Shown: positions 276 to 32,604, counted from the first letter of the stretch. The stretch: DNA of 51,145 nt from Gemmatimonadales bacterium (GCA_041613315.1 JBFJHJ010000023.1:1-51145), one strand, 5' to 3'. Numbers and translations are program-made. The notes: a model not told the origin generated them from the letters alone.

Positions 276-1634
276 TCAGAAACCGAGCTGCTTCAGCTTG
301 TAGAACAGGGTCCGGGGGCTGATCCCGAGGATCTTGGCGGCGTCCTGCCGGTTCCCGCCGGCCGCTTCGAGTGCCCGCTGGATCGCATGACGCTCGGCGT
401 CGGCCACCGCGTCCTTGAGCGTGGTCAACTCGTCGCCGCCGCCGGCCGGCTCGCCCCCCGCCGCCCGCACCGGCGACGCGACGCCGGCGTCTCGCACCGC
501 GTCCTCGCGGATCACGCCGTCGGCCGAGAGCACGGCCGCCCGCTCCAGGGCGTTCTCCAGCTCGCGCACGTTGCCGCGCCAGGCGTTGCGCCGGATCGCC
601 GCCATCGCGTCGCCCGTGACGGTGAGCTCCCGCCCCAGCCGCTTCGCCGCCCGGGCGACGAGGCGCGCCACGAGGCTGTCCAGGTCCTCCGGGCGCTCGC
701 GCAACGGAGGGATGTGTATGCGCACCACGTTCAACCGATAGAACAGGTCCTCGCGGAACCGCCCCTCGGTCACGTCGGCCTCGAGGTTCCGGGCGGTGGC
801 GGCGAGCAGCCGGACATCCACCTTCCGGGCGTGCGCCTCGCCGACGCGGCGGACCTCGCTCTCCTGGAGCACCCGGAGGAGCTTGACCTGCAGCTCCACC
901 GGCAGCTCGCCCACTTCGTCGAGCAACAGCGTCCCGCCGTCGGCCTCCTCGAACAGCCCCGGCTTGTCGGCGGTGGCGCCGGTGAACGCGCCCCGCTTGT
1001 GCCCGAACAGCTCCGACTCCAGCAGGTTGGCCGGGATCGCGCCGCAGTTGACCGCGATGAACGGCGCGGTGCGCCGCGGGCTCATCCGGTGCACCGCCCG
1101 GGCCACGACCTCCTTGCCCGTCCCGCTCTCCCCCGTGATCAGGACCGTCGTCGCGTGTGGGGCGACCCGGCTCGCGAGGTCCATCACCTTGCGCATCGCC
1201 GACGAGTCGGCCACCACCTCCACGTCCCGCACTCGGGCCAGCTCGGCCTCGAGGCTCGCCACGCGGCCCCGAAGCTGCTCGCGCTCCTCGGCCTTGCGGA
1301 GCGTGAGGAGGACCTCGTCGGAACGGAACGGTTTGGGGAGGTAGTCGTACGCGCCGTCCTTCATGGCGGCGATGGCCGCGTCCTCGCCTCCGTAGGCGCT
1401 CATCATGATCACGAGCGCCTCGCCTCCCTCTTTCTGGTAGCGGCGCAGGAACTCGATGCCGTCCATGCCGGGCATGCGGACGTCACACAGCAGGATCTCG
1501 AACGGCTCCCGCAGAGCCCGGTCGAGCGCCTTGCCGGGCTCCCCCTCCGCCGCGATCTCGTACCCCTCGGCGTCGAGCAGCATCGAGAGCGATTTCCGGA
1601 GGCCCGGGTCGTCGTCAACGATCAGGATGCGCAT
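276..1634 (-). CDS. Sigma54-dependent response regulator (NtrC/AtoC family enhancer-binding protein)
   Basis: Receiver (ILIVDDD, CDVRMP, KPF), AAA+ Walker [15 protein letters not shown], Walker [17 protein letters not shown], Fis-type HTH. Confidence 0.95.
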
Positions 1635-1659
1635 CGCCGCTCACTCCGCTCCCGCCGTC

Positions 1660-2817
1660 TCATTCCGCCTCCGGCAGGAAGATCTTGAACGCCGCCCCCC
1701 CCTCGCGTGCATCGTCCACCCAGACGAGGCCGCCCAGCTCGTACACGATCCGCTGGACGATCGCGAGGCCGAGCCCGGTGCCGCGGCCGGGCTCCTTCGT
1801 CGTGTAGAACGGGTCGAAGATCCGCTCCCGGTCCGGCTGGCGCACGCCGGGTCCGGAGTCGGCCACGAACAGGAGGACACCGCGCGTGCCTTCCGCCAAC
1901 TCGGGCCGCCACGGCCGGGTGGGCGAAAGGCGATCGGGCACGTCCCCCGGCTTGGGATCGGTCCGGCGGCGCTCCCCCTCCGAGCGCTCGCGGTAACGCC
2001 AGCGGGCGGCGCCCGCCCCGACGCGACCGCCCTGCGCCGCGTCCACCGCGTTGAGCAGGAGATTGACCACGACCTGCTCCAGGAGGTGGGCCCGGCCCCG
2101 CACCGTCGGCAAACCCTCCTCGATCGACACGACGACGTCTACGCCCTTGAGGTTCCCCTGGCGGCTCAGCAACTCGTGCACGTTGCGGATCACGCTCCCC
2201 ACGTCCACGGCGCCAACGTCGTCGTCGCGCGGCCGGGCGTACGCGAGGAGACCCCGGACGATCCGGTCGATGCGGGCCGTCTCGTCGCCGATCGCCACCA
2301 ACACCTCGGGATCGGTCCCCCGCTGGCGCAGCACGTCCACGTAGGTCCCGATCGCGGAGAGCGGGTTCCCCACCTCGTGGGCGATGCCGGCCGCCAGATG
2401 ACCGATGCTCGCCATCTTCTCCGCCCGCACGAGCTGTCCCTGGGCGTCCAGCAGCCGCTCCGTCATCCGGTTGAAACGGTCCGCGAGCTGCGTGAACTCC
2501 TCGGTCTCGGCCGGCGGCGCCCGCCGGTGGAGGTTGCCCGCGGCCAGCTCGTCCGCCACGTCGGTGAGCGCGCCCATCGGCTTGAGCACGAGCCGTTCCA
2601 CCAGATACCGCCCGAAGAGAAAGAGCACCAGGAGGTCGCCCACGATGAGCGCGGTGAGCACGACCACGGCGTAGCGCGGCTGGAGCAGTTGGGCAACGAG
2701 CGCGGTGGCCACCGCGAGCGAGAGCGCGGCGGCCGTGAGGAGCGCGAGGTTGAACAGGAGCTCCCGCTTGAGGCTGGGCCGCCGGACGTTGGCGGACGGA
2801 GCGGACGGTCCGGACAC
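1660..2817 (-). CDS. Two-component sensor histidine kinase (2 TM, HAMP, HisKA, HATPase)
   Basis: AHEVGNPL H-box, NLLLNA N-box, DSGPG, FDPFYTTK, GTGLGL. Start uncertain (GTG 2817 or TTG 2838). Confidence 0.92.
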   Translation of the reverse strand: MSGPSAPSANVRRPSLKRELLFNLALLTAAALSLAVATALVAQLLQPRYAVVVLTALIVGDLLVLFLFGRYLVERLVLKPMGALTDVADELAAGNLHRRAPPAETEEFTQLADRFNRMTERLLDAQGQLVRAEKMASIGHLAAGIAHEVGNPLSAIGTYVDVLRQRGTDPEVLVAIGDETARIDRIVRGLLAYARPRDDDVGAVDVGSVIRNVHELLSRQGNLKGVDVVVSIEEGLPTVRGRAHLLEQVVVNLLLNAVDAAQGGRVGAGAARWRYRERSEGERRRTDPKPGDVPDRLSPTRPWRPELAEGTRGVLLFVADSGPGVRQPDRERIFDPFYTTKEPGRGTGLGLAIVQRIVYELGGLVWVDDAREGGAAFKIFLPEAE

Positions 2818-2834
2818 CCTCCAAGATGCGTACG

Positions 2835-2865
2835 ACAAGGGGCGGCGGGAAACCCCCGCCGCCCC
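2835..2865 (-). terminator. Putative intrinsic terminator after the third pilin
   Basis: Stem GGGGCGGCGGG (2839-2849) / CCCGCCGCCCC (2855-2865), followed by TTGT on the minus strand. Confidence 0.6.
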
Positions 2866-2892: not shown

Positions 2893-3300
2893 TTACTGAC
2901 AGGCGATCTCGCCCTCCGTCGTGGCGGGCGGCGGCGCCGCCGCCATCCCGTAAAACAGCGCGCAGGTCCGGGCCGAGCCCGTGTGGTTGGCCGTCGCCCC
3001 CCAGCCGGCACCGGTCACACCCGAGAGCACGATCGACACGCCTCGGGTCGGCACGAACCTGAGCGCCGCATCCGGAATCGCGCCGTCGTAGTAGGTGTCG
3101 TTGTCGTAGAAGTACGATTCCTGGAAGCTGGCCAGGTTGCGCAGGTCGCTCTTCATCGCCGCTTCGTTCGCCCGGTCCTTGCTGTTGGCGAACTTGGGGA
3201 TGAGAATCGCGAGGATGATCCCCATAATGACGACAACGACGAGCAGTTCGACCAGGGTGAATCCCCGTCGCGACAGCGTCATCGGCTTTCGTCGGTCCAT
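2893..3300 (-). CDS. Type IV pilin (copy 3)
   Basis: SRRG|FTLVELLVVVVIMGII...PKF, AMKSDLRNL, C-terminal Cys pair, GGGAG RBS upstream of ATG 3300. Confidence 0.93.
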   Translation of the reverse strand: MDRRKPMTLSRRGFTLVELLVVVVIMGIILAILIPKFANSKDRANEAAMKSDLRNLASFQESYFYDNDTYYDGAIPDAALRFVPTRGVSIVLSGVTGAGWGATANHTGSARTCALFYGMAAAPPPATTEGEIACQ

Positions 3301-3328: not shown

Positions 3329-3760
3329 CTAGTTGCAGGCGATTATGCCCTCGATCGTCGCCGGCGCCACCGGCGGCTGGCTCAGTCCGTAGAATACGGC
3401 GCACGTGTGCGCCGTCCCGCCATGCTTCGCCTTCCCCCCCCACCCCGTCCCGCTCACGTCCTGCAGCGTGATCGACACCCCAGGCGACTCGACGACCAGC
3501 TGGGTGATGTCGTTCGAGTACGTGGTCCAGATGGTCACGTACGCCTCCTGCGCCGTCACCAGGTTACGCAGGTCGGACTTCATCGTCGCCAGGTACGACT
3601 TCTCCTTGGTGTTCGCGAACTTCGGGATGGCGATCGTCGCGAGAATCCCGAGGATCACGAGCACGATGAGAAGCTCGATCAGCGTAAAGCCGGTCCGCGC
3701 CGTCCGCGCGCTCCCCCACCTCCACCAGGCGGGCCCGACCCTCCATGCGCACATACCCAT
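3329..3760 (-). CDS. Type IV pilin (copy 2); start codon uncertain
   Basis: RTG|FTLIELLIVLVILGILATIAIPKF, MKSDLRNLVTAQEAY, C-terminal Cys pair. In-frame ATGs at 3760 and 3754. Confidence 0.88.
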   Translation of the reverse strand: MGMCAWRVGPAWWRWGSARTARTGFTLIELLIVLVILGILATIAIPKFANTKEKSYLATMKSDLRNLVTAQEAYVTIWTTYSNDITQLVVESPGVSITLQDVSGTGWGGKAKHGGTAHTCAVFYGLSQPPVAPATIEGIIACN

Positions 3761-3769
3761 ATTTGTACG

Positions 3770-3807
3770 CAAATGGGGCGGTGGGCAACCGCGCCGCACC
3801 GCCCCAT
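3770..3807 (-). terminator. Putative terminator/attenuator hairpin after the major pilin
   Basis: 11-bp stem ATGGGGCGGTG (3773-3783) / CACCGCCCCAT (3797-3807) with a short T run on the minus strand, about 24 nt after the stop of copy 1. Confidence 0.65.
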
Positions 3808-3830: not shown

Positions 3831-4244
3831 TTACTTACACTTCGGCTCGCCTTCGTTCGCCGTCGCGTCGATCGGGTTGACCTGGGGGTTACCGGCGGCG
3901 TCCACGCCGACGGCGATACCGCAAGCCTGCGGGCTCCCCGTGTGGGTCACCTGCGCCGTCCAGCCGAGACCAGCGGCCGGCGTGATCGCCAGACCACCGA
4001 CGCCCGAGCTCGTCGCATACAGATACGGCGCGCCCGTCATGTTCGCCACGTCGGCGTACAGGTTCTTGTCGGCGAAGTACGCCTCCTCAGCCGTCACGAG
4101 GTTGCGCAGGTCCGACTTCATCGCCGCGACGTACGCCTTCTCCTTCGTGTTCGCGAACTTCGGAATCGCGATGGCGGCCAGAATGCCGATGATCACCACC
4201 ACGATCAGAAGCTCGATCAGGGTAAAACCCTTGCGGTCCAGCAT
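3831..4244 (-). CDS. pilA: Type IV major pilin (copy 1)
   Basis: MLDRKG|FTLIELLIVVVIIGILAAIAIPKF, GGAGG RBS, first gene downstream of a consensus sigma54 promoter, 131-aa mature protein with C102/C130. Confidence 0.93.
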   Translation of the reverse strand: MLDRKGFTLIELLIVVVIIGILAAIAIPKFANTKEKAYVAAMKSDLRNLVTAEEAYFADKNLYADVANMTGAPYLYATSSGVGGLAITPAAGLGWTAQVTHTGSPQACGIAVGVDAAGNPQVNPIDATANEGEPKCK

Positions 4245-4327: not shown

Positions 4328-4344
4328 GGCAACCTCCGTGCCAA
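4328..4344 (-). promoter_or_regulatory. Sigma54 (-24/-12) promoter of pilA
   Basis: Minus strand TTGGCACGGAGGTTGCC, an exact match to TGGCACG-N4-TTGC. Confidence 0.88.
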
Positions 4345-4578: not shown

Positions 4579-6633
4579 TCACATCGGCGGGCGGTCGTCG
4601 GTCCGTTCAACGGCACCTCGTGTGCCGGTCCCAGGCCCGTCGGTGACTCGTTGGAGCGTGGGCAACGCATCGGGCTCTCCCCGGGGTGGCGCGAACCGCC
4701 AGATCTCCCACCCTGGGTAGTGCGCGAGCAGCTGGTCATCCCGCTCATAGAGATCACGCGCGAACACGATCCCCCTGTCCCGTCCCGGCGCATTGCGCCA
4801 GGCGAGGTGGCCGTAGAGCGTGAATCCCGCCAGGTCGCGCGCGAGCTCCCGGGCGCACTCCGCTGGCAGGTCCTCCCGGGGACGGAGGCGGAGCGTGCGG
4901 TCGGGCCAGCGCGGCACGCGCCGCGTCGCCTCCGGCGTCGCGGCCAGCATCCGCTCCACCTCGCCGGCCAGGCGCTCCGCCGGCCAGCGGCCGGCCCTGG
5001 CGTCTCGCTCCAGGAGCTCGAGGTCGCACGCGTCCAGGCGGCGGTAGGCCCGTTCGGCGAGCGCCGGCCGCACGCCGCCGCTCCACAGCCCGACCACGAG
5101 GCGGCTCCCCCAGCTCTCCGGCACGAGCACCAACGCCTGCTGGACGCCCCGCCTGGCCAGGTCCCGGTCGGGCCGGAGGCGGAGGGTGGGAAACCGGTCG
5201 CGATACTCCGCCACACGGTTGGGCAACACGCCAACCGCCCCCCATATGACGACGGCCAGTGCGCCGGCCGCGAGTGCCGCGTCCCCTCGGATCAGTCGGG
5301 CCGGCGGGCGGCGCGCCTGGTGGCGCAGCCATTCCCACACCTGCGCGGTCCCCAGCACCAGCATGGGCGCGGCCACGTAGTAGAACCGCGGCCCGGGATA
5401 GAACCCCGAGTGCCAGTAGAAGAAATAGAGCGCCGGCGCGGCGAGAATGCCCACGGCCACCACGAGGTCGCTCGCCCGCCGCTGCCGCCCCAGGAGCGCC
5501 CACGCCGCCAGCGGCAGCAGAGCCGGGATGGGCCACTCATAGAGGTAGATATGGAGTCGGCGGACGGCGACCGCCGCGTTGCTGAGCGCGACGAGCGGCG
5601 TGTATCGCTCGCCCCAGGGATCGGCATGGAACCCCAGGGTCTGTTGCTCGCCGAACAACACCGAGTATCCGAGCGTCGCGGGATCGCCGTACAACCTCCA
5701 GTTCACGTATCCCCACGCGAGCGCCACCGGAACGGCGCCCAGCGCGAGCCACGGCACCGCGCGCCAGCGGCGCCGGACGATGATCCACGCGAGGATGGGG
5801 AGGGAGGCGGCGACCGCGTCCAGCGGCCGCGTGGCGGCGACGCCCGCGAGCGCGGTTCCCGCGAGGAGGTCGTGCCACCACGCGCGGCGGGTGGGTCCCC
5901 ACACGAGGGCCCACGCCGCGAGCGCCAACGTCGCGGCCCCCACGTGGCTCAGATAGGTCGCGGACATGAACATGACCCACGCCGACAACGCCCAGAGTAC
6001 GGCCGCGGTGACCCCGGTCCGTCGCCCGTAGAGCCCGCGGCCCACCAGGTAGATGAGCACCGCGCCGAGCCCGCCGAGCAGTGGATTGACGAGCCATTCC
6101 GCGTGCACCAGCAACCCCACGGCGAGCAGCGCGGTCTGGCCCGGCGGATACTGCGAGACCCACCCCGCCTGCGTTACCCACGTATTCGCGATCAGGAATG
6201 CCTCGAGCGGCTGAGGCGCGGGGGCGGCGAGCCGCCCGGCGGCGAACGCCCGGGCGTGGACCAGGTGCGCCATCTCGTCCACCAGCACCGGATTACCGGC
6301 GAACACCGCGTGCACCACGTACGTGGACAGGGCGATCGTGACGGCGGCGGCCGTGCCGACGACGGCCGGTACGGGGAGGCGCGGCAGGCGCGGGATCACG
6401 CGTGGCGCATGGGCGAGCAACCGGCCAGCCACGACGGCGAAGGCGACCACCGTCACGAGCCCGATGGCCCACGAGACGAGGTTGGGCACCCAGGGGGGAC
6501 CGGCGTCCGCCGCCCCACTCCAGCGCGTGAGCGGCAGGAACGGCAGGGCCACCAATGCCACTCCGATCCCGACCCAGAGCCCCCGGGCGACGCGTGCGGT
6601 GGCCGTGGGCGCCCGCCCCCGGGGCGACGTCAC
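4579..6633 (-). CDS. GT-C fold membrane glycosyltransferase (ArnT/PMT_2/GT39-like)
   Basis: Multi-TM protein with LVDEMAH acidic motif in the first external loop, SQYPPG, TRPLD and GPRFYY. GTG start overlaps the upstream TGA (GTGA). The track ORF upstream of 6633 is read-through. Confidence 0.75.
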   Translation of the reverse strand: MTSPRGRAPTATARVARGLWVGIGVALVALPFLPLTRWSGAADAGPPWVPNLVSWAIGLVTVVAFAVVAGRLLAHAPRVIPRLPRLPVPAVVGTAAAVTIALSTYVVHAVFAGNPVLVDEMAHLVHARAFAAGRLAAPAPQPLEAFLIANTWVTQAGWVSQYPPGQTALLAVGLLVHAEWLVNPLLGGLGAVLIYLVGRGLYGRRTGVTAAVLWALSAWVMFMSATYLSHVGAATLALAAWALVWGPTRRAWWHDLLAGTALAGVAATRPLDAVAASLPILAWIIVRRRWRAVPWLALGAVPVALAWGYVNWRLYGDPATLGYSVLFGEQQTLGFHADPWGERYTPLVALSNAAVAVRRLHIYLYEWPIPALLPLAAWALLGRQRRASDLVVAVGILAAPALYFFYWHSGFYPGPRFYYVAAPMLVLGTAQVWEWLRHQARRPPARLIRGDAALAAGALAVVIWGAVGVLPNRVAEYRDRFPTLRLRPDRDLARRGVQQALVLVPESWGSRLVVGLWSGGVRPALAERAYRRLDACDLELLERDARAGRWPAERLAGEVERMLAATPEATRRVPRWPDRTLRLRPREDLPAECARELARDLAGFTLYGHLAWRNAPGRDRGIVFARDLYERDDQLLAHYPGWEIWRFAPPRGEPDALPTLQRVTDGPGTGTRGAVERTDDRPPM

Positions 6634-8465
6634 GGTCCGCACCCCGCCGCCCGCGCGCGCTGACGCACCTCGAGGAGCCCGGGCGCGAGCGGCTGTCGTT
6701 CCTCCACCTCGCGGAGTCGCCGTCTGGCTTCCGCGCAGGCTCCGGCATCCACCGCCGCCGCCGCGGTCGCGAGGCGATACTGCCACGCGCGCGGGAAGCG
6801 CCAGGCGAGCTGCCGGAACCAGCCCAGCGCCTCGCGTGGCCGGCCCCGGGCTTGTGCCAGGTCCGCCATGACCGCGAGGACGGCCGGATGGTCCGGTGCG
6901 GCGCGGTGCACGCGAGCCGCAGCGGTCACGGCGCTGTCCAGCTGGCCGGCCCGCACGAGGTCGGCCACCGCGCGAGCGCCGGCGACGACCTGTGTCGAGT
7001 CCACCCGGAAGGCGGCGGCGTGGGCGGTGGCGGCCTCCCCCCAGCGTTGCTGGATCTCGAGCTGTCGCCCGAGGTCGAGCCACGGACCAGGATGCAGCGG
7101 ATACGTGGCGATCGCCCGGCGCAGCAGCGCCTCGCCGCGGGTGGAATCGCCCGCCGCATACGTGATCCACCCGGCCACCCAGAAGCTTCGGAACGAACCG
7201 GGCGCGTCGCGCACGAGTTGGGGCATCAAGGTCGCGTTGTCGCGCCACACGGGTACCCGCGTCATGGTGCGCGCGAGTCCCAAACCGACGACGAGCGCGG
7301 CGACGGCAGCCGCCGGCACCGGGCGACCCACCGCCAGCACCTGCCACAGCCCGGCAAGGACGACGACCGCGCCCACCGATGGCAGATACAACGTCCGTTC
7401 CGCGAGTAGCACCTCGCTCGGGACCAAGATGTTGGAGACGATCAGCAGGCTCCCGCCCACCCACGCGAGGCCGAACGTGACCGCGGGGATGCGCCGGCGG
7501 GCGGCCACGGCGGCGGCGACGAGCGCGAGCAGCACGGCGAGCCCGGCGACACCCCGGAGCGTGAGGTGATCGCTCACCGGCAGGAAGTTGGGCGAGTAGT
7601 CCGCCGAGAGGCGGACGGGCACGAGGAGGAGCCGTAGGTACTCGAGGATCACGGGCGCCATCACCACCATGCGCTCGCCGAGGCCGGCCCCGACCAGCCC
7701 CGGGGCGATCCCTCCGCCGGAGAGCCGCCCCACGACGCTCACCCACACCCAGAGCCATTCCGCGGTGAGCGCGACCGACGCGGTCCAGAGCACCCAGTGC
7801 CGTCGGAGCGCCGTCTCCACCAGCTCGCCACGCCGCCGGGCCGACCACCAGTCGTCGAGCAGCAACAGTCCGGGAAGGACGAAGGCCGTCTCCTTGGACG
7901 CCAGTGCGAGAACGAGACAGCCAAGCATCCCCAACGCGCTGGCCCCCCGCCGCCACCCGGTCGCCCCTGCCGCCGCCAAGATTCCATCGGCACGGTAGAG
8001 GAGCACGGCGCCGATCGCGAACACGCCGGCCAGCAGCTCGGCCCGGCCGACGACGTTCGCCACCGCCTCCACGTGCACGGGGTGAACGGCGAAGAGCGCG
8101 CCCGCCACCACACCGCCCGCCGTCCCCAACATCCCGCGGACGAGCACGAACACGAGGGCCGTCGCGACGGCGTGCAGTACGACGTTCACGCCGTGGAACA
8201 GCCACGGCTGCCCGCCGCTCACGGTCCAGTCGAGCGCCAGGGTGAGGGCGGCGAGCGGGCGATACACGGCGTCGTGCCACCAGGTTGAGCGGAGGATCTC
8301 CCGCCAGTTGGCGAGATCGTGGAGTGGGGGATTGTTGACCACGATCGCCAGGTCGTCGTAAGCGAAGCCGTGGCGGAAGGTCGCGGCGTAGGCGGCAACG
8401 GCGATGAGCACGCACGCCGCGAGCGCGAGACGATCGCGGCCGGGGGGCACGGCCGGCGGACTCAC
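6630..8465 (-). CDS. TMTC-like protein O-mannosyltransferase-family protein (GT-C + DUF1736 + TPR)
   Basis: [57 protein letters not shown](R)DN, then TPR-like helical repeats. GTGA overlap with the upstream gene. Confidence 0.85.
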
Positions 8466-9193
8466 CCGCGTCGGCGGTGTCGGGAAAAGAGGTTGAACCG
8501 CAGCACGTGCCACAGCGCCGCCACGCCGTCCCGCCAGCCGATCTTTTTCCCCTCGGCGTACGTGCGGCCGCTGTAGCTGATCGGCACCTCCCAGATGCGG
8601 GCGCCGGCCTTCGCGAGCCGGGCCGTGAGCTCGATCTCGAAGCCGAACCGGTTGGAGACGAGGGGAAGCGACTTGATCAGCTCCGCCCGCACCATCTTGT
8701 AGCACGTCTCCACGTCGGTGAGGTTGAGGTCGGTGAACATGTTGGAGATGAGGGTGAGAAAGCGGTTTCCCAACGAGTGCCAGAAGTAGAGCACGCGGCG
8801 CGGGCCGCTCTGAAACCGGGAGCCGTACACGGCGTCGGCGCGTCCATGGAGGATCGGCTCCAGCAGGTGCGGCAGCTCGCGTGGGTCGTACTCGAGATCG
8901 GCGTCCTGCACCACGATCACGTCGCCCGTCGCGGCTTCGAATCCGCGCCGCAACGCCGCCCCTTTGCCCCGGTTTCCCGGCTGATGGATCACCTGCTGAA
9001 TCAACCCCTCCCGGGCGAGCCGATCGAGGATCTCCCCGGAGCGGTCGGCGGACCCGTCGTTCACCGCGATCACCTCGATATCGAGCGGGACCTCGAGCAG
9101 GCGGCGGACGGCCGCCTCCACCGCCGCCTCCTCGTTGTACACGGGCATCACGATGCTGAGGCGGACCTGGTTCCAGCTGGCGGGCGAGCTCAC
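8462..9193 (-). CDS. GT2 glycosyltransferase, DPM1/polyprenol-phosphate glycosyl synthase-like
   Basis: [46 protein letters not shown]. Confidence 0.92.
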
Positions 9194-9969
9194 GTGGGCC
9201 GCTCGCCAACGGCGATGAGCGACTGCCCGATCCGGCGGGGCAGGAACCGCTCGAGTCGGAACAGCGGCACGAGCGCGTCGTACACCGCGAGGCTACCGGT
9301 GGGAATAAGACGGCGACGCAGCACGCGGCCCACGAACCACCAGCCCGGAAGGCCGGCGAAGTTGAAATACTCCATGCGGACCAGCCGGAGGCCGGCGGTG
9401 GCCATCCGCTCTTCGAGCAGCGCCGGCGTGTAGCGGCGCACGTGTCCCAGGGCTTCGTCCAGGGTGCCGTAGAGGGCGGGGAGCGCGGGCACCAGCAGCA
9501 CGACGCGTCCGCCCGGCGCCACGAGGGTCCGCATCGCGGCCAGCGCGGCGCGGTCGTCGGCGATGTGCTCCAACACGTTGAGACACACGACCGTGTCCAA
9601 CCGCTCGGCGGCGAGCTCCGGGGGCACCGCCGGGAGCGTCAGCCCGGTCACGGTCACGTGCGCCAGCTGTCCGAACCGCCGCGTCAGGTAGTCGCGGTAG
9701 GCCGACTCGGTGTCCGTGAGCACCACGCGCTCGCGGTCCATGAAATGCACCGACAGGTTGCCGATGCCCGACCCGATCTCGAGCACCCGCCGGCCGATCC
9801 ACGGGGCGAGCCGATCGTACATCCATCGGTTGAACGCCGGAGCGCGCGCCATCCGCTCGAGCGTGGCCGCGCCGACCGCATCGGCGGCCGGGAGCGGTCC
9901 CGCGTTCCCCGGTGAGACCGTGCGCATGGTCGCGACCTGCGGGCGGGAGACGCCCCGCTCAGCGGTCAT
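9190..9969 (-). CDS. Class I SAM-dependent methyltransferase
   Basis: VLEIGSGIG motif [30 protein letters not shown]. Start may be 9927. Confidence 0.88.
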
Positions 9970-12900
9970 CGGCCGCCGCGAACGCCACGAGATACGCGTC
10001 CACGAGCTCCGAGCGGAGACTCATCGGCTGCCGCCGGTGCGGCGCGAGGCGCTGGTGAATCCGGACCGCGCCGGTGACGTCACCCACGCGGAGCTTCGCC
10101 ACCACGGCCCCGACCAGCAGCTCCTCCACGTCGATCCACCCCTCGCCGTTCCGTGCGCCGTCGGCCAACGCGTCCACTGCTCGCGAGGCCTCCGCGAAAT
10201 CCCATGCGGCGAGACCGTGGTGGAACCGCACGGCGTCGAGCACCTCCTGCGGCGCGCGATGCCGCGCGAGGTACGCCGCTACGGCGCGGTAGAACGTCTC
10301 GTCCGCGTACCCGGCGGTGCCGCCGTCCCGGTCGTTTTCCACCAGGCGGAAGTCCTGGAGCCACAAGCGCCAATCCGCCGGCGGCGTGGGGGATCGCATG
10401 GTCAGCTCCCACAGGTCCTGACGATACCGCGCGGCGGCGAACTCGCGCGGCGGAGCGAGGGGGCCGACCTCGACGACCGCCTGGTGACGCAGGGCCGCCC
10501 CCACCGCGCGCGACATCAGCCGCGGGACGTCCACGATGGGCACGGACGCTTCGGTGCCAGGGAGCCGGCGCCGTCCGAAGAACGGGGCAGTGACATCGAA
10601 ACGTGCCCCCGCCACCACGGACAACCCCTCGGCGCGCTCCCGCATGAACCGGGCGCGTTCGGCGCCGAGATCCAGCACGGGGTAATAGTCGGAGTTCGGC
10701 TGACCCCAGTCGCGCAACAGCGGGGCGAGGGCGGCGCGATGGATCACGCGCGTGGCCTCGAGCGCTTGCGGGGTGAGCGGCATGGCGTGGCACAAATCCC
10801 GGGCGATCTCCGGCCACTCGACGATCGACCAATCGGGCGCCCGGAGCGTCTGACCGGTGCCGGCCACGATCAGCAGATCGTTGCCGCCGGTCTGGAAGAT
10901 CTCATACGCGGGGAAGTTCTCGTGCAGGGCGGCGAGCACCGTCAGCAGGAGGCCGTCGGTGAGCTCCCAGCGGTGGATCCACTGTCCGAACACGGCGTCC
11001 GGCGCCAGATAGCGCTTCACGTGTCCGTAGAACTCGGAGGTGAAGAGGCTCGCCACCCCGCTCACCCAGGGGTTGGAGGGCTCGGACAGGATGAGGTCGT
11101 AGCGCTCCTGCCCGGCGGCGAGATAGGCCCGCGCGTCCTCGATGACGTGCACCGAGCGGGGATCGTCGAACACGCGCCGATTGGCCGGATAGAACGCACG
11201 AGAGCCGCGGATCATCTCCGGCTCGATCTCAATCGTGGTCACCCGCTCGACGACCGGGCTTCCGAGCAGCGTATGGGACGACATGCCCGTGCCGTGGCCG
11301 ATGACCGCGGCGGAGCGGGCGTCGGGCGCGTGGGCCAGCACCATCAGCGGCAACAAGGTCTGGGTGGCGATGTCGCCGACGATCGGGCGCCGGACGGTGG
11401 AGTCGGCGCACGGCTCGAGCCACGCCGCCGGCAGCGAGCCGTCGGTCTTGCCGTTCGTGTCGATCGCGGTATGCCCGGTCGCCTTGTGCCGCGACACGGC
11501 CACGGTGGCGGTGCGGCCGTCCTTGTAGAACAGCATGTCCACCGAGCCGGGCGGCATGACCGTGCCGAGGCGGAACACGCCGGACGTGAGGATCCGCTGT
11601 TCCACACCGGTGGCACCGGCCACGCCGGCCAGCACGACGGTGCCGACGGCCATCCCGTACGCCAAGCGCGGGAGCGCGGCGCGGCGCCAGGTCGCGGCGG
11701 CGATCAACACCACGCCCAACGCCATGTCGAGCGTCGCGCCGGCTACCAGGGTCCACCGCACGCCGATCAAGGGAAGCAGCACCACGCCGGCCAGCCCCAC
11801 GCCCACGATGGAGCCGACGGTGTTGGCGCCGTACACGGCGCCGATGGCCCGTTCGCCCCGGCCCGCGGCGAGCAGCGTCCGCGTGATGAGCGGCAGGGTG
11901 ATCCCGGCGCAGAACGTGGACGGCACCATCACGGCGACACAGATGGCGTAGCGGGACAGGGTGAACCCGGTGTAGCCACCGTCGGTCCTGGCAAACGTCT
12001 GAATCAGCTCGCGCAGCCAGCCGAACGAGGCCGCGTAGAGTGGCAGCGTGGCGAGGGCGGCGAAGCCCATCACCCACTGCACGACGCCGAGGGCACGGAG
12101 CGGATCCGCCCAGCGATCCACCCGGGTGCGCACCCACAGCGAGCCCAGCGCCAGCCCCAGGATGAAGGCCGAGAGCATCAACTCGAACGAGTGAGTGGCG
12201 CTTCCCAGCACGAGGGCGAGCATCCGAAGCCAACTGATCTCGTAGATGAACGATGCGACCGCCGTCCCAAAGCTCACCCCGAGCAGGAGGTACCAGAGCC
12301 GGTTTCCGGCCGGCGCCGGCACCGGTTCGGACGTCGCCGGTCGCGTGACCGGGGGCGGTGCCTCGTCCGCGGGCGCTCCCGCGGGGGCATATCGCGCCAC
12401 GGTGAGGGCGACCGCCGCGACGACGAGGTTGAGCATCGCCGCCGTGAGGACCGTGCCGGGAAGCCCGGCGAGCGACAGCAGGTAGAACCCCGCCACGAGC
12501 ACCCCGAGGGCCGCGCCGATGCTGTTGGCGAAATACAGGAGTGCCAGCGTGCGGCCCATGCGATCCGGCACGCGCCGCAGGGTGCCCGCGCCCATGAGCG
12601 GGAACGTGGCGCCAAGCATGACCGATTGCGGGAGGATCAGCGCGCCCGCGATGACCCACTTGGCCACGGCCAGCCACCCGCCGGACAGCACGGGGAAGAT
12701 GGCGTCGTAGGCGAAGCCGGTCACCCCGAGGTAGAGCTCGTGGAACACCAGTCCGATGAGCCCCACCGCGAGCTCGATGAACGCGTAGGCGCGCAGGGGA
12801 TCGCGCAGGCGCTTGGAGCGCTCGCCGGCCAGCCAGGCGCCGCCGGCCATCCCGCCCAGGAAGATCGTGAGGACCAGGATCTGTGCGTAGGCGCTGTGGC

Positions 12901-13009
12901 CCACGAACAGACTCAGGTAGCGGGCCCAGATGGACTCGTAGATCAGCCCGGCGGCGCCGGAGAGCACGAAGATCGTGTAGACGATCGCCTGCATGGTCCG
13001 CTGGGACAT
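9959..13009 (-). CDS. Fused multi-TM (MFS-like) / spermidine-synthase-like protein
   Basis: Two hydrophobic repeats (SGAAGLIYESIWARYL and ASFIYEISWLRML), then VIGHGTGMS, IEIEPEM, EDARAY, YDLILSEPSNPW. Confidence 0.85.
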   Translation of the reverse strand: MSQRTMQAIVYTIFVLSGAAGLIYESIWARYLSLFVGHSAYAQILVLTIFLGGMAGGAWLAGERSKRLRDPLRAYAFIELAVGLIGLVFHELYLGVTGFAYDAIFPVLSGGWLAVAKWVIAGALILPQSVMLGATFPLMGAGTLRRVPDRMGRTLALLYFANSIGAALGVLVAGFYLLSLAGLPGTVLTAAMLNLVVAAVALTVARYAPAGAPADEAPPPVTRPATSEPVPAPAGNRLWYLLLGVSFGTAVASFIYEISWLRMLALVLGSATHSFELMLSAFILGLALGSLWVRTRVDRWADPLRALGVVQWVMGFAALATLPLYAASFGWLRELIQTFARTDGGYTGFTLSRYAICVAVMVPSTFCAGITLPLITRTLLAAGRGERAIGAVYGANTVGSIVGVGLAGVVLLPLIGVRWTLVAGATLDMALGVVLIAAATWRRAALPRLAYGMAVGTVVLAGVAGATGVEQRILTSGVFRLGTVMPPGSVDMLFYKDGRTATVAVSRHKATGHTAIDTNGKTDGSLPAAWLEPCADSTVRRPIVGDIATQTLLPLMVLAHAPDARSAAVIGHGTGMSSHTLLGSPVVERVTTIEIEPEMIRGSRAFYPANRRVFDDPRSVHVIEDARAYLAAGQERYDLILSEPSNPWVSGVASLFTSEFYGHVKRYLAPDAVFGQWIHRWELTDGLLLTVLAALHENFPAYEIFQTGGNDLLIVAGTGQTLRAPDWSIVEWPEIARDLCHAMPLTPQALEATRVIHRAALAPLLRDWGQPNSDYYPVLDLGAERARFMRERAEGLSVVAGARFDVTAPFFGRRRLPGTEASVPIVDVPRLMSRAVGAALRHQAVVEVGPLAPPREFAAARYRQDLWELTMRSPTPPADWRLWLQDFRLVENDRDGGTAGYADETFYRAVAAYLARHRAPQEVLDAVRFHHGLAAWDFAEASRAVDALADGARNGEGWIDVEELLVGAVVAKLRVGDVTGAVRIHQRLAPHRRQPMSLRSELVDAYLVAFAAADDR

Positions 13010-13057: not shown

Positions 13058-14427
<1,370 letters not shown>

Positions 14428-14431
<4 letters not shown>

Positions 14432-16059
14432 GCGGCGACCTCCGTCTTCCCTTTGGCCGGCAGGATGACCTCGAACCTCGTCTGGCCCGCGCCGGACTCC
14501 ACCAGCACGACCCCGCGGTGGGCCTGCACGGCGCGTTGCACGATCGCGAGCCCGAGTCCGGAGCCACCCTCGCGGCCCGTGACGAACGGATCGAACAGCC
14601 GATCGCGCAGCTCCACTGGCACGCCCGGACCGTGGTCGGTGACCCTCAGCAGTGCCGCCGGCTCCAGCCGCATGCCGACGGGCAAATCGCCGGGATTGGC
14701 GCGGCGGACCTCGACACGTACCGCGGCCGAGTCGCCGGACGCCTGGACCGCGTTCAGCACCAGGTTCACCACGACGCGGTGCAATAGGTCCTCGTCGCCT
14801 TCGACCAGCGTTTCCTCCACCCGCAGCTCGATACCGGCGTCGTCGGGACAGTCGGGGTGCTTGCGCACGACGTCCACGGCGGCGCTGGCGACGGCCGCGA
14901 GATCAAGCGCCCGCGAGCTCGTGACCCGCACGCGTGAGAAGTCCAGAAACTCGGCCAGGAGCCGGCTCAGCCGATCGCTCTCCTGAACCACGAGCTTGGC
15001 GAGAACTCGATCGTCGTCGTCGGCCAGCGCCGAGCGCGCGAGCTGCTCTACGGACGACCGGATAGACGCGAGCGGGTTACGGATCTCATGGGCCAGCGAC
15101 GCCGACAACTCCGCCACCGCTTCCAGTCGCTCCGTCCGCAGGTGCAACGCCTCGATCCGTTTCTGATCCGAGATATCGGTGAAGATGGCGGTGACCGTCG
15201 GCGTCCCGTCGTCCACGTCCAAGGCCGTGACCGTCACGCCGATGGGGAACACCCGGTCGCCCGCGCGCACCTGCCCTTCGGCGCGGTAGGTCTTCTGTCC
15301 GGTCTCCTGCGCGACGACGATGGCCTGGAGCAGCTCGGGCGAGCGGCGCCGAACGAGTTCCCCGAACGGCCGCCCGACCACTTCTCCTCCCTCGAGCCCG
15401 AGGATGTCCCGGGCCGCCGGGTTGGCGTACATGAGAATGCCTTCCCCATCCACGGTGAGCACCCCGCTCCGGATGTTCCGCAGGATGTCCCCCGCCTCGA
15501 GCCGGAGCCGCCGCACCTGCTCCCGGAGAGCGGCCCGCTCGGCGCCCAGGAGCCGCATCCGCCCCGCGACGAGCCCGGTCACCAGGAACACGCCGAGGAA
15601 CACCGCGATCTGGAGCCAGACGGCGAGCTCCAGCTCGACGGGCTGCAGCCAGACGATGTCGGCGAGATACAGCAGGCTGGCCAGGCTCGTGACCAACAGG
15701 CCCGCCCGCAGCGGCATGGTGACCGCGCTGAACGCGATGACCAGCACGTACAGCGCGGGGAATTGGCTGTCGGGACCGCCCGTGACGTGGACGACGATCG
15801 TGACGAGCCCCAGGTCCACGAGCGCCTGGGCGTAGAGGAACGTGATGCTCGGCTCGACGCCCCGGACGTGGGTGTACCAGCCCGAGAGGGTGCTGGCGAA
15901 GACGCTCGTAAGCGCCGCGATCGCCAGCAGCAGGATGGTCTCCGGGGGGAGCGCCTTGAAGTAGAAAGCGGCGGCCGCGAACAGGACGACCGCCACCAGC
16001 ACGCGCCCCAGGTAGACCCACTGGAGCAGGTTCCGAACCGGCGGCACCCCCCCGGCCAT
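14428..16059 (-). CDS. pilS: PilS-like sensor histidine kinase (about 6 TM, PAS, HisKA, HATPase)
   Basis: PilS-type TM region (QALVDL...VHVTGG..SQF..LY), PAS (SGVLTVD..G.L..ANPAA), AHEIRNPL, GSGLGL. Start 16059 or 16101. Confidence 0.85.
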
Positions 16060-16254
16060 CCGGCCTGTGCGGTACCGCCGCGCCTCACTGATGGCACGCA
16101 TGGCCAGAAGTTTCTGGGGGGTCTGGCAAAATGCAATGCCGTGGCTCACATCCCTTTGGGAGAGGGCGAGATAGAGACGGGGCGGGGGCAGAGGCGGCAA
16201 GAGGGGCGAACGCGGCAGGGGGGGGAACGGCGGGAGGGGGGAGCGGCCAACGGC

Positions 16255-26384: not shown

Positions 26385-29300
26385 TCACAACTGTCCCGCG
26401 AAGAGGTTGATGTCGGCGAAGATGGTGAACACGATCTGCGACAGTTTTTGCGACGTGTGCCGCTGGTCGGTGAGCACATAGCTGAAGGTGAGCCCCCCGC
26501 GCACCGATTCCGAGAACCCCGTGTCGGTGCGGACGTCGAATTGCTGCCGTCGGCTGTCCGATACGGTGCGGCATTCGCCCGACCCGACCCGCACCAGGCA
26601 GACGGCGCGCTCCGACGAGCTGAATCCGAGGGTCGTCTGAAGCCGCCCCCGCAGCCGCACCAAACTGGCCGGCGGTCGGAACGCGAAGCTGGCGCTGGCT
26701 CCCCAATTCTCCTGCTCGCTCCGCGTCACGTTTCCGGCCGTCACCGCGTCGCTCGTCGCCCGCGAGTATTGCGCCGCGGTCGTGACACCCATCGCCCACG
26801 TGAGCGACACCGAGGGCGCGATCAAGACGGCGTCCGTTTCCGTCACGACCGCGGCCCCCGGAGCCGCCGTTCCCGCGGACCCCGGGGTCCGCAGTACGCT
26901 CGACGTGGACGACTCGCGGTACTGTGTCTGCGCCGACAACGCCGAGATCACCGAGCGCAGGGCGGACCGCGGCGTGTAGACCCAGGAGAAGGCGAGGGAT
27001 GGCCACTCCCGGCTCGTCTGGGCGAACTCGATCTGCGCGTCTCCCCGGCGCGCCCACCAGGTGTTGCGGAGATCCCGGTATTGCACCCGGAGTTGCGCCC
27101 CCAACGGCAGCCGTGTGCCGCCGGTCGCGAAGATCGTCGAGGACTCGCCCGCCGACGTGGCCGGCACGCCCGCCCGAGCCCGGAAATCGTCGAGGCCGCC
27201 CAGACCGAGCTGATACCCGAGGCCCGCGTCGAACGGCGCACGGTCGAACGTCGAGCGCCGCTCGCGGGCCCAGGAGACATCGGCCGGGAGGAAGCCGCGG
27301 ACGAGGCGGGCCACGAGGCTGGAATCTCCGACGATCCCTCGCACAAGCCGCGACAGATCCACGCCGGTCCCCACCTCCCGGCGCCGGAAGTTGCTCTGCG
27401 TCTCCGGCACGCGGAACCCCCCGCCCGCGTCCGGGCCCAGGCGTACGGCATCCCGCGCATTGGGATCGCGGTACAGCGCGAATCGGGTGCTCACCCCGTA
27501 CCGCGGGCGCAGCCACGCGCTCACCACCGGGCTGACCGTCACCGACGTCGCGAACGTGCGGAGCCGCTCGAATCCGACGTTGACGCCGACCAGGGCCCCC
27601 CGCTCGGACTCCAGCAGGCGTCCGATCGTCGTCGAGTCGCCGTAGTCCTGCAGGTCGCGCACGCTCGTATAGTCCGCGCGGACGGCGAGCGTCGCGAACG
27701 GGCGGAACTCGACGCCGACGTCATTCACCCAGGTATGGACGACGCTGGGCAGCGGAGGGAGCGCGCTGTCACTCGCGAGCCGGACCGGCACGCGGAACGT
27801 GAACCGATCGGTACGGTTGTTGGTGAGCGTGGAGCTCAGGCGGACACGGTAGGGGTTGAGCCGAAGGCGGGCATTCCGCAGCGCCTTGCCGAATTCGCTG
27901 TTGCGGATGAACCCGGGGAGCGCGTCCACGAGACCCACGAGAAAGGCGGGCGCCGCCCGGATCGTCGCGGCGCCCGGCGTGAGCCCGTAGTCCGCGCGGA
28001 CCAGCCGATTGGTCGTCGCGGCTTCGGTGAGCGAGGTGACGCCCTCGGCCGTCTCGCGCCGCACCCGCACCGCCAGCGGGTCCAGCAACGTCCGGGTGAG
28101 AAACGTCTCGCCCCGCGTCGCCCGACGCAGCGACACCTCGAACGTCGTGACCCGGCCCCGGGGACGACGCAGCCCCGGCAGCGCATCGGCCCGGACGTCG
28201 GTGCGCGCCAGGTAGAACGGATCGCTGCTCGTCCGGCCATGCTGGACGCTGAACGGGACGCTCAGGCCCCACGCCGCCGGCAAGAACTTGTCGAGTCGAA
28301 TGAGCGCGCCGATCCGCGAGGCACCCTCCTCCACGTAGCTCGGGCGCTCCCCGAGCTGCCGGAAACGGTCGCCGCGGTTCGTGAACGCGAACGTGAATTC
28401 GGCCACATCGGCGGCGGCGAGCCGCACATCGAGCGCGGCGGCGACATCGGGATCGTCCACCGCGTCGCTCAACCGAATGTCACCGACCCACAGTTCCGCT
28501 TCGGTGATGGCCACCGTCGTCCCGGTCCGCAGGACCCCCGCCGCCACCTCGGAAACGCGCGCGAGGTTCGGCGGCGTCACGCCGGGGTCCCGCACCTGCA
28601 CCAGGTACGGCCCGTCGCACGCCACGAACGCGGTGGAGTCGCCGCCGCAGGCGGTGGCGCCCGATGGCGACTCGCCCCGCAACCAGGCCGCCTCCACCTG
28701 GGCGCGCAACGCGAGCCAGCGACGCAGGTCCACCACGACCTCGGGCTCCCAGCGATCGACCTGGGCAGGCGCGCGATACAGGTAGAAGTTGTGCTGGTCG
28801 CGCCCCACCTTGATGAAGAACTCGAGATCGCCCTCGTCCCAGCCGACCCCCCGGCCCCGGGCCCAGGCCCGGAGCTCCCGGTAGGCGAGAAAGTTGCGGT
28901 CCGCTTCGTCCGCAAACCGAATGAAGGCTTCGGCGCGCTCGCCGGCCCGCAGATCGCGGGCGAGCACCCGGAGCGAGCGCTCGTTCACTTGCTGCTGGCC
29001 GATCTCGAGCCCGACGCCGAAGCGGTCCGCCTGATTGAAGGCGCCCGGCGGTGAGGTGTAGCCGAGATCGGCGTTTTCCGTGCCGACGAACGAGACAACG
29101 ACCTCGCCGTGGGGCTCGCCGTCGGCGCCGCCCAGGCCGACGATGGGCGTGGCCGCGCGCTTGAGCCAGGGGGCTCCAAGCAGCCGAAGCCGGGCGAGCG
29201 CCACGAACAGCTCCTCTTCGACGGGCCCCTGGTCCGGCGCCACGACGCTCAGGCGGAGCGCCTGTACCTGTCGCAGGTTCGGCCGTCCGACTTGGAGCGT

Positions 29301-32300
29301 GTCCACCCGGAACGGGATACGGTACAGCCGCCACGTCTGCGGGCGCCCCCGCTCGTCCAGCCGGGACACGCCCTCTCGCACCAGAAACCGTGGGTCGCCG
29401 ACGGGAAACACATACCGGACCAGGTCCTCTTCCGCGCGGCCCACCGTCACGTCGAGCCGGTTGTCCCCGTCCAGGTCCTCGGTGTCGAGCTGGCCGTTGC
29501 GGCGCGTGCAGACAGCCTTGAGATCACCCCGCGGGAACACCGAGAGCCGCACGGCTTGCTCGAGATCGCACATCGGAAAGCGACGGAACACGGCTCCGGT
29601 GGTCGCTTCGACAAGGGAATCGAGGAGGTCGCCGCGGATCCCGACGTCGTCCACCAGCGCGTTGAAGACGTTGGCGAGCGTGTCCTTCTCCGTATCGAGG
29701 CGGCCCGTGCCCACGGGCCGCACCCCCGTGAACGTGGTGTCGTCTCCGAGCGCCCGGAACGCCACCGGCCCAAAGTCCACCGCGTCCTCGAACACGGTGC
29801 CGAAATCGAATAGGACAATGGCGTTCTGCCGCCGTGCGGTCTCGTCGGCGTCCTCGAGGACCCAAAACTCGAGGAACTCGATGCGGGAGAGATCCACGCC
29901 GACGCCGGAGCCGCCCCCCAGCGGCAGCGTGATGCTGCGCCAACGCGGCCCCGGCGTGTGCGGACGGAACCAGCGTGGGGCGCCGCTCCGCGGGTCCGGG
30001 GCGCCGCCGACGGTGTCGGGCTTGAGCGTCAGCCACAACACCGGCTCCACCTGGAAGCCCGCGCCGACGAGCGCGATCGTGGTGTCGATGTCCCGCGGGC
30101 CGAACTCGAGGATCCCCGTAGCGGTCTGGATGGCGTTCTGCCAGACGAGGGCGGCGGCGTCCTCCGGCGCCAACCCGCCGGCGGCGTTCACGTGGGTGGG
30201 CGGCAGCCCACGGGCCGACGACGGTGCGCTGCCGTACTGGAACCCGTCTTCCAGCAGCCGGATCGGGAACGCGGCTTCCTGCTGGAAGTCCTCGATGTAG
30301 GCGATCCCCGCCTGGTTCGGGTTGGGACGCGACACCGCGAACTCGCCGCTGATATCGAGCCGTGAGGGCACCGTCGTCGCGACGAAGGGCAGGCCGTCCA
30401 GCAGTCGGGTGAGCGCGTCGGCGCGGAACTGGAGCGTCGTGCTCACGCCGCCAATCAGACTCGACTGCGGCTCGAACCCGAGTTGGGGCCGCGTGAAGCT
30501 CGTGCGGTCGCGCTGCAACAGGCCGATCGCGTTGATCTCCCCCTGGTGGCCCAGGCGGTAGGTCGCCGCGAGGCCGAAGATGCTCTTCGGTGCGAGGTCG
30601 AACAGCTGGTTCTCTTCGAACTGCACGCGGACGGCCGTGGGTCCGAAAAACAGCGCATCGGGATCGAGGAAGCGGACGCGGCCGAGCTCGTAGTCGATGG
30701 TGTAGTCGCGGCCGCGCTCCAGACGGCGGTCGCCGATGAACAGCTGCTCGCTCCCGCCCCGAAGCTGAAAGGCGCCAAGGCTCAGCGTGGTGCGGTCTCC
30801 GGCGCCGGTCGCGTCGTAGTGGAGTCGCAGGGCGAACGTGGGCGGCGGGCCTTGCGTGCGCAGCAGGTTCGTGGGTGTGCGATAGAGCGAGTCGTTGCGC
30901 TCCCCGGGCAGCAGCCGCGTCGCGTCGGCAAACGGCGTCAGGTGGGGGAACACGACGAAGAGATCGCGGATCGGCGCGCCGTCGTTCGGGTCCCGCGGGC
31001 GCGGAAAGACGCGATTGAACTCATCGAGGGTGGAGGGATCGGTGGCGCGGGCCAGCCCCAGCCGCGAAAGGTAGGTGCCCGCGCCGGCGAGTGGTCGCTC
31101 CGAATCGTTGACCAGAATCGTCAGACCGATCGTCGGGCGATTGATGTCGCTCCCGCCGACACGATACACGTTCCGCAACTCGTGAAGGAACGTCGGCACC
31201 TCCGGACCCTCGCGCGGTTCGTGGATCAGGCGCAGGGTGTCCCCCGCCCCGTTCACCGCGGGGAACGTCCCAACCGTGTCGCCCAGCGCCGTCACGTACG
31301 AGACGGCGAGAAAGTCCTCCGTCGTGAGCCGGGTGGTGAGGGCGAACCAGACGCCGGACGGGTCGAGGTAGTAGTCCCGCCCCTCCACCAATGACTCCCA
31401 GGGAAACGGCCCCACGCGTTGCGGGCTGTCCGGTCGGACCGCCACGGCATCGATCCCGCCCAGGTTCGTATTGATGCCACCCCGGCTGTCCTGCGCCCGA
31501 AGCCGATAGACACGAACGGCCACGGGCCGCGTGTCCGGCGGCAGCGTGGAGGCATCGAAGTCGAGCACGTCCACGGCCGGATAGTCCGGCAGCACGGTGG
31601 GCGCGACGACGAAGAAGAACCGCCCGCGCTCGTAGTCGAGGTCGCGCGCCTCGAAATCGACGGGCTGCGTGGCCGTCTCACCCATCGAGAAGATGCGCGA
31701 GCGAAGCGCCGACCCCTTCTGCTGGACGACCACGGTGCGAAACTCCAGCGCCCCCACCTGCCCATGGGCCTGGACGCCGAACGAGTTCGCCGGGATCGCC
31801 GCGGTGATGAACCGCGACGGCGGGGCGTCGAAAGTGACGTTTCCCACGTCGATCCGCCGGAGCAGGTCATCCGAGCCGCCCTGGTACCACACATTCATGT
31901 TGTTGTTGGCGTCGAACTCACGCTCGCTGTCGAAGTCCACGCTCACGTGGAGCCGATCGCCCATCACGCCGCCGGTGCGCACGCGAAACTGTTGGTCGAA
32001 GGTCGGCGTGGGGAATCCGGCGCGGCAGCCGGATGCAGGATTGCTGATGTCCTGGGCCGTGCAGCGCTCGTTGCGCAGCCGGTCCACTCTCATCTCCACG
32101 TGTGCCCCCAGCTCGAGGCCAAGGTTGGCGAAATCGGCGAACGACTCGAGCGCCCCGGGCGCCTCCCGCTCGGCCAGCTCCGCGGGCCGCGGGATCACGA
32201 TCGCCGGCGCAGCGGTATCCGGCCGAGCCGGGACGAGCGCCACCGACTCGAGCAGCCGGCGGCGTGCGCGAGCGGCGCGCGATCGCCGCAGGGAGGCTTC

Positions 32301-32519: not shown

Positions 32520-32535
32520 GAGAGTGGGGTAAGCC

Positions 32536-32564
32536 TTGTATCGGGTCGGGCGGCGCAATATAAT
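32536..32564 (+). promoter_or_regulatory. Sigma70 promoter of lptFG
   Basis: TTGTAT-N17-TATAAT, 40 nt upstream of ATG 32605. Confidence 0.75.
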
Positions 32565-32604
32565 GGCGCTCAAGTTGTTACAAGTTCACGCGTTACGAGT
32601 ACCC

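Follow-up and report, generated by a model that had tools for sequence, protein, structure and literature searches.

A stretch of 51,145 nucleotides from a Gemmatimonadales bacterium (GCA_041613315.1, JBFJHJ010000023.1:1-51145; hereafter the window), whose genome is 83% complete, contains a cassette of five genes, named A to E here, between pilSR and a group of type IV pilin genes, and two of the five, C and D, probably form the core of a pilin O-glycosylation module of the TfpW type. The minus strand encodes, in this order, pilS, pilR, A to E, a gap of 334 nt with a sigma-54 promoter box, three pilins and a second kinase/regulator pair (table 1). The cassette begins 48 nt behind pilR. A first-pass annotation had described five coupled genes with overlapping stop and start codons; such overlaps (4 nt, GTGA) join B to C, C to D, and D to E, whereas A and B overlap by 11 nt and are thus coupled without a stop/start overlap. 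The starts of D and E are GTG codons internal to longer mechanical open reading frames, and the GC content at third codon positions of A to E (0.88–0.91) matches that of the flanking genes. The family labels of all five genes were confirmed by Pfam, NCBIfam, and structure comparisons.

Table 1. Features of the pilSR-to-pilin region, in the order of the minus strand.
Feature	Position	Strand	Assignment and remarks
pilS, sensor kinase	14428..16101	-	6TM_PilS, PAS, HisKA, HATPase_c
pilR, sigma-54 activator	13058..14431	-	Response_reg, Sigma54_activat, HTH_8; position kept in relatives
A, fusion of major facilitator superfamily (MFS)-like protein and spermidine-synthase-fold domain, 1016 amino acids (aa)	9959..13009	-	NF037959, PF01564; 13 hydrophobic segments; accessory gene
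B, cytoplasmic class I S-adenosylmethionine (SAM) methyltransferase, 259 aa	9190..9969	-	Methyltransf_23 (E 5.7e-13); accessory gene
C, DPM1-like family 2 glycosyltransferase (GT2), 243 aa	8462..9193	-	PF00535; predicted polyprenol-phosphate sugar synthase; core gene
D, TfpW/TMTC-like GT-C glycosyltransferase with periplasmic tetratricopeptide repeats (TPR), 611 aa, GTG start	6630..8465	-	Predicted pilin O-glycosyltransferase; core gene
E, GT-C glycosyltransferase without TPR, 684 aa, GTG start	4579..6633	-	PMT_2; ALG12/ArnT-like fold; accessory gene
Sigma-54 -24/-12 promoter box of major pilin	4329..4343	-	Consensus match
Pilin 1, probable major type IVa pilin	3831..4244	-	N_methyl and PilA_Myxo matches; invariant Ser73 (mature numbering), codon 4010-4008
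Terminator-like hairpin after pilin 1	3773..3807	-	-33.7 kcal/mol, z -4.4; 0 of 200 shuffles equally stable
Pilin 2, uncertain start, long leader	3329..3799	-	N_methyl
Pilin 3	2893..3300	-	N_methyl
Second sensor kinase and sigma-54 regulator	276..2838	-	Same position behind the pilins in many relatives

In Pfam, the D protein matches TPR families only. A structure model built from an alignment of 46 sequences (pLDDT 94.5) shows a membrane domain, in which 11 transmembrane (TM) segments were assigned by eye (nine by a hydropathy scan), and a C-terminal periplasmic TPR domain supported by both Pfam and the structure. Foldseek results for D were swamped by TPR matches and set aside; the GT-C domain was resolved by a wide structural search, in which the membrane domain aligned to AglB (Z 22.2, root mean square deviation 4.4, 334 aligned residues) and Pmt (Z 20.4) and also to Pmt1-Pmt2, Pmt4, STT3B, and ArnT, with the TPR tail following. 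The aspartate pair in periplasmic loop 1 (D37-D38) is kept in all 46 homologues, and loop 4 reads Y276-X6-P283-V-X7-P292, with P283 present in 46 and P292 in 44 out of 46.

This is the layout published for TfpW of Pseudomonas aeruginosa group IV (Pa5196, PA7), which is described as a protein of 646 aa with 11 TM segments, DDX in loop 1, a C-terminal TPR domain, ArnT as template and a YX6PFX7P motif, and which is reported to glycosylate Thr64 and Thr66 of the pilin (10.1101/2020.04.19.049825). As far as that description goes, TfpW and the slightly shorter D are both pilin-adjacent GT-C enzymes with DD(X) in periplasmic loop 1, a C-terminal periplasmic TPR domain, an ArnT-like fold, a proline pair in loop 4, and a polyprenol-phosphate donor, and the earlier view of the locus as a system apart from TfpW is not supported. 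The two differ in that D lies upstream of the pilin and behind pilSR whereas tfpW is described downstream of pilA, in the loop-4 motif (Y-X6-P-V-X7-P versus YX6PFX7P), and in the paralogue arrays, extra GT-C families, and methyltransferases found in the cassettes of relatives. They also differ in the donor, which here would come from a DPM1-like GT2. No convincing DprE1 was found: the best candidate in the 83%-complete genome, where DprE2 was not searched for separately, is a weak FAD-oxidase match (70 bits against a cut-off of 500) in an unrelated neighborhood. Because D has the published TfpW layout, the cassette is regarded as TfpW-type with a GT2-made donor rather than D-arabinofuranose. 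It is not classed as TfpW proper, since no D-arabinofuranose donor route was found and TfpW is known here by its published description, no TfpW sequence or model being among the homology and structure search results. Judged by this architecture, D is predicted to act like TfpW.

A second likeness is to the eukaryotic TMTC1-4 enzymes (GT105), which are described as having the motifs DD, YRP, KE, and ERxxY and as taking their sugar from a lipid phosphate charged by an enzyme of the DPM1 type (PMC7801869). D shares with them an 11-TM GT-C domain followed by TPR (luminal in the TMTCs), these four motifs, and donor synthesis predicted to be of the DPM1 type. Within the 46 homologues the DD pair is complete, as are K191 and R357, whereas E192 is found in 44, E356 in 45, and Y360 in 32. 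Thus TMTC motifs M1, M4 (KE), and M7 (ERxxY) are retained. Of M2 just YRP is left, the SHKS part of SHKSYRP being absent from the D homologues; M5 reads DY instead of DW, at a position matched by inference; and the TPR array is short. A Pfam search with TMTC_DUF1736 (PF08409) gave no match for D itself and matches in nine of the 46 homologues (best E 4e-11), a look-alike cluster in the Atlas carries DUF1736 at 0.92, and the structure-search results include no TMTC entries. As a detector of D the model was tried in 61 genomes and dropped; it gave three weak matches, none of them over the cut-off, and is therefore too insensitive here. The TfpO/PilO and PglL enzymes likewise O-glycosylate pilins in the periplasm from a lipid-linked donor and differ in transferring a preassembled oligosaccharide; neither D nor E matched these families in the family searches.

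The partner gene C matches Glycos_transf_2 (E 4.5e-38), and its best solved relative is the Pyrococcus-type dolichol-phosphate-mannose synthase 5mlz (E 2.9e-20), with the DAD (DxD) motif aligned. Its scores against the NCBIfam models AglJ, DPhHxTase, and PpgS all fall below the cut-off, and these models assign no sugar specificity.

The linkage of the cassette to pilins was examined by synteny in relatives. A scan of species genomes gave at least 642 loci by D homology alone, and the best 77 were analyzed; they are kin and partly overlap a set of 40 relatives. A pilin gene is present in 58 out of 77 loci, and in 43 out of the 49 whose assembly continues for 1.5 kb or more downstream. D is almost always the gene that adjoins the pilin, with a gap of at most 1.2 kb in 54 of the 58 loci (median 420 nt), whereas in the window the two are separated by E. 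A rough estimate puts the linkage expected by chance at 0.015. A sigma-54 box with at most one mismatch precedes the D-proximal pilin in 35 out of 58 loci, compared with 0.6 expected from shuffles. Among the 40 relatives a D homologue was found in 27 (a tally that takes in one unpublished genome, G014, which is never the sole basis of a claim). By manual count, 23 of the 40 have a contiguous stretch from pilR to the pilin, which contains D in 16, is empty in four (G005, G015, G016, G017), holds an inverted A alone in two and another gene content in one; in the other 17 the contig ends, no pilin or pilS match was found there, or the region was not fetched. Overall, D is an accessory gene of the phylum (82 out of 149 good genomes). 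As a control, longer TMTC-like genes of distant classes were examined (12 out of 18 matches in five genomes) and had a pilin-like neighbor in one out of eight loci, so the D–pilin linkage is not generic to such genes. In relatives, the data thus support one part of the earlier proposal, namely that an enzyme for a lipid-linked donor (C) and a GT-C of the protein-modifying, periplasmic type (D) are closely linked with the pilins.

In a FastTree phylogeny of 111 D sequences, pilin-proximal and distal copies form clusters (four divergent sequences are placed unsurely), and the D of the window groups with distal copies whose loci usually carry a second, proximal copy. No D locus was found on viral contigs (none from three candidate stretches), and a plasmid search likewise gave no D relative. 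Tandem triplets of TMTC-like genes of a distant class (750–830 aa) stand beside panC at L275:7300-14696 and L276:5450-12554 with no pilin nearby; they are possibly a general protein glycosylation system.

The remaining three genes are less constant. Of the 120 longer homologues of B that were listed, 118 have a C-type GT2 at the N-terminus (identity of at least 50% in 109), and these fusions tie B to the donor step, as far as a methyltransferase in the first-pass route is concerned; by sequence, B would be the split partner of a C-type GT2. A matches Spermine_synth (E 3.7e-16) and NF037959, the model of fused MFS/spermidine synthases (96 bits against a curated cut-off of 40), and Atlas clusters carry the same fusion name. 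Twelve MFS-like TM segments and a 13th precede the spermidine-synthase-fold domain of A, which is predicted to be periplasmic because the even loops are rich in lysine and arginine (2.1–4.2 per loop, compared with 0–1.3 in odd loops and 0.6 in the short N-terminus; boundaries set by eye). The domain shares its fold and a glycine-rich SAM-binding loop with SpeE and putrescine N-methyltransferase. It differs from them in its fusion behind 13 TM segments, its predicted location, the Thr/Ser at the acidic position of GxG(D/E)G that binds decarboxylated SAM (dcSAM), and the catalytic DxxD loop, which reads E-P-S-N. Exchange of the dcSAM-binding aspartate switches spermidine synthase to a methyltransferase (PMC3725402), and A is probably a SAM methyltransferase that acts in the periplasm.

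Close orthologues of A occur in nine relatives and stand next to a pilin or pilR in five of them. Of 80 metagenome loci chosen by A homology, 13 have pil-locus or cassette neighbors (the union of nine and seven flagged loci), and in the remaining 67, often on short contigs, neither a pil-locus neighbor nor a shared context was seen. The place of A varies: it lies ahead of pilS, behind pilR, or between D and the pilin, with both orientations represented, and in two genomes without a D match (G021, G023; L053:7922-11014, L054:517-3561) an inverted A is the sole gene between pilR and the pilins. This varied placement, including loci without a glycosyltransferase, links A genuinely, if loosely, to the pil locus independently of the glycosylation genes, and A appears to be an optional, independently recruited modifier. 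Acyltransferase-3/SGNH fusions, which do likewise for acetyl groups, offer an analogy for a more speculative proposal: A could be a self-contained periplasmic methylation machine, in which the MFS part exports SAM to the fused methyltransferase acting on the pilin or its glycan, with D as a pilin-specific counterpart of the TMTCs, so that glycan and methyl marks form a swappable code. The predicted topology, the lost dcSAM residue, and the repeated recruitment to the pil locus, also where no glycosyltransferase is present, are the grounds for this proposal, which we hold to be rather unlikely.

In its strongest form, as a special case of the C and D module, all five genes would act in sequence as one pathway of priming, elongation, and methylation on the pilin. 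The translational coupling of the cassette speaks for such a pathway, as do the presence of the same five genes in one other locus (L111) and the position of A directly before C in several loci. In contrast, among 40 loci that span pilR to the pilin, C is found in 35, E in 15, B in six, and A in five, and L111 alone has all five. E precedes D in all 15 loci that contain it, the reverse of the order in the window; most A relatives lack a pil-locus neighbor; A stands inverted and alone where D has no match; and no GtrA-family flippase was found in the 83%-complete genome. The claim of one complete, conserved route is not sustained, and we consider a five-gene pathway unlikely. Cassette content is instead highly variable: relatives carry one to three D paralogues together with GT-Cs without TPR and methyltransferases. 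The cassettes of family f3 (L081/L032, L082/L035, L083/L038) extend over ~15–17 kb between pilR and the pilins in the manner of a serotype locus and contain a Wzx-type flippase, GT4 and GT2 genes, methyltransferases, and several GT-C families.

The pilins themselves fit the role of acceptor less simply than first described. Their variable segments had been called Ser/Thr-rich, a label that the data do not support: past residue 45 the three pilins of the window contain 11.6%, 18.9%, and 15.6% Ser/Thr, compared with a family mean of 24%. The three motifs singled out earlier are one homologous segment with an invariant [S/T]-x-G, whose first position is Ser or Thr in 140 out of 140 pilins and lies near the position of the targets reported for TfpW, Thr64 and Thr66. 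Ser/Thr content is higher in 70 genomes or loci with D (24.5%) than in nine genomes without a D match (20.8%, p 0.023), a contrast that carries little weight because related genomes are not independent samples and other GT-Cs are present in several of the nine; Ser/Thr content was set aside as a marker. Pilin 1, with the strong hairpin directly after it, is probably the major pilin. For pilin 2, an in-frame start codon is lacking near the GFTLIE site; the nearest ATG codons, which would give a leader of 22–24 residues, lie inside or behind the terminator-like hairpin, so pilin 2 may be weakly expressed. A scan for sigma-70 promoters and terminators gave nothing beyond chance. A fourth pilin of the same family is encoded at an unlinked site of the source genome (G000:C42:19287-19868). 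Two relatives without a D match and without a close pilS match, G031 and G035, carry 13 and eight scattered pilin genes, which suggests pilin diversification instead of glycosylation.

Several observations weigh against pilin glycosylation by C and D. The pilins of the window are among the poorest of their family in Ser/Thr. The invariant Ser/Thr extends without exception to the 20 pilins of genomes that lack a D match and, being universal, may be structural. No specific signal of D–pilin co-evolution was found in 31 loci (partial r 0.15 for D–pilin and D–PilR alike). The exact YX6PFX7P motif is absent from all 46 D homologues, 24 of which have an aromatic variant, and the source genome yielded no GtrA-family flippase. 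Some D copies lack a pilin in their neighborhood (L162, L183, L041, L050, L070). Finally, in G029, a complete genome without a D match, pilR is followed by two GT-C genes of family F, a C-type GT2, and then the pilin (L077:7334-10407), so priming by D is not a rule without exception, and the family F enzymes may modify the pilin where a TPR enzyme is missing. With these points taken into account, we still regard the pilin as the likely glycan acceptor.

The unlinked D copies and the low Ser/Thr content of the window pilins would also suit a general periplasmic O-glycosyltransferase whose targets are exported proteins other than pilin, or parts of the pilus machinery, and for which pilin is at most a minor substrate. 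Folded Ig-like domains are modified by TMTC enzymes (PMC11292533), and the neighbors of distant TMTC-like genes are FN3 and other secreted proteins instead of pilins. This explanation is improbable when set against the pilin-adjacent position of D, kept across families and through inversions, the TfpW precedent, and the accessory distribution of D.

For E, the acceptor is less clear. It matches PMT_2 (E 2.1e-5), contains an invariant D119, and has a fold, periplasmic domain included, that ties ALG12 (Z 23.7) with ArnT (Z 23.0) at ~10% identity; the ArnT model NF009784 gave no match for E at E 0.01. The family F enzymes, GT-Cs without TPR present in 38 out of 77 loci, are related to E by profile (probability 96%) and were not found in the source genome. 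E is a possible second-sugar transferase. Alternatively, the GT-Cs, and E above all, might glycosylate a lipid (lipid A or a glycolipid) or a surface polymer and merely share the pilin locus. Besides the ALG12/ArnT tie, the resemblance of the f3 cassettes to polysaccharide loci would be explained in this way, as would the E-family GT-Cs that adjoin mnmG/gidA away from any pilSR cassette (L068:4605-6605, L069:14811-16817). Evidence to the contrary is a gene on C40 of the source genome that is closer to ArnT (E 1.2e-50, below the cut-off), together with the TPR domain of D and its TMTC/TfpW motifs, which indicate a protein acceptor. A further GT2/GT-C locus lies on C6. For E alone such an acceptor is possible, though doubtful; for the GT-Cs together it is decidedly improbable. 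That the gap between pilR and the pilin is an insertion hot spot for genes without a function in pili is very improbable indeed, for although content, copy number, and orientation vary widely, the cargo of the scanned loci is almost exclusively GT-C, GT2, GT4, methyltransferase, and flippase genes, D nearly always stands next to the pilin, and the GC3 of the cassette is like that of the host.

The surroundings of the cassette are those of a pil locus. Genes that we take to be pilB, pilT, and pilC (labels given by sequence, not by a family scan) lie ~4.5 kb upstream of pilS. The second pair, a HAMP kinase and a sigma-54 regulator, keeps its place immediately after the pilins in many relatives and is reminiscent of Myxococcus PilS2/PilR2. 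Elsewhere in the window (26385-32573), a protein of 2062 aa with a weak SprA_N match is encoded divergently from lptF/lptG.

Under the TfpW-type module, C would use a nucleotide sugar, probably that of a hexose or hexosamine, to charge polyprenol phosphate at the cytoplasmic face, and B, where present, would O-methylate the donor sugar or the lipid-linked donor. The donor would be moved outward by some flippase or by D itself, as proposed for TfpW. D would then hold the membrane-anchored pilin through its TPR domain, in line with the recruitment idea put forward for TMTCs (PMC11292533), and transfer the sugar to Ser/Thr in the periplasm, with the invariant [S/T]-x-G (Ser73 in pilin 1) as the foremost candidate site. 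E may add or branch a further sugar, like the commoner family F in relatives, and A would be an optional periplasmic methyltransferase. The cassette would be read through from pilSR, with the pilin under its own sigma-54 promoter. The cassette content varies between lineages as in a serotype locus and plausibly alters the pilus surface seen by phages, an idea for which TfpO and TfpW are the precedent (PMC11841053).

The literature covered, mostly outside subscription journals, has nothing on this cassette, on pilin glycosylation in Gemmatimonadota, or on the function of the MFS/spermidine-synthase fusion, and contains no paper that names both TMTC and TfpW. The analysis extends TfpW-type pilin glycosylation, known from experiment only in one Pseudomonas group, as a prediction to roughly half of the genomes searched in Gemmatimonadota, apparently as a highly variable cassette with another donor chemistry, and links TfpW and the TMTC family by their motifs. 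A bacterial system of two genes, a GT2 and a TMTC-like enzyme with a small substrate that has a soluble head, would serve as a simple model of TMTC catalysis, and the unstudied family of fused MFS/spermidine synthases gains a testable function and substrate. If A is indeed a methylation machine and D the bacterial counterpart of the TMTCs, the phylum would type its pili by a swappable code of glycans and methyl groups.

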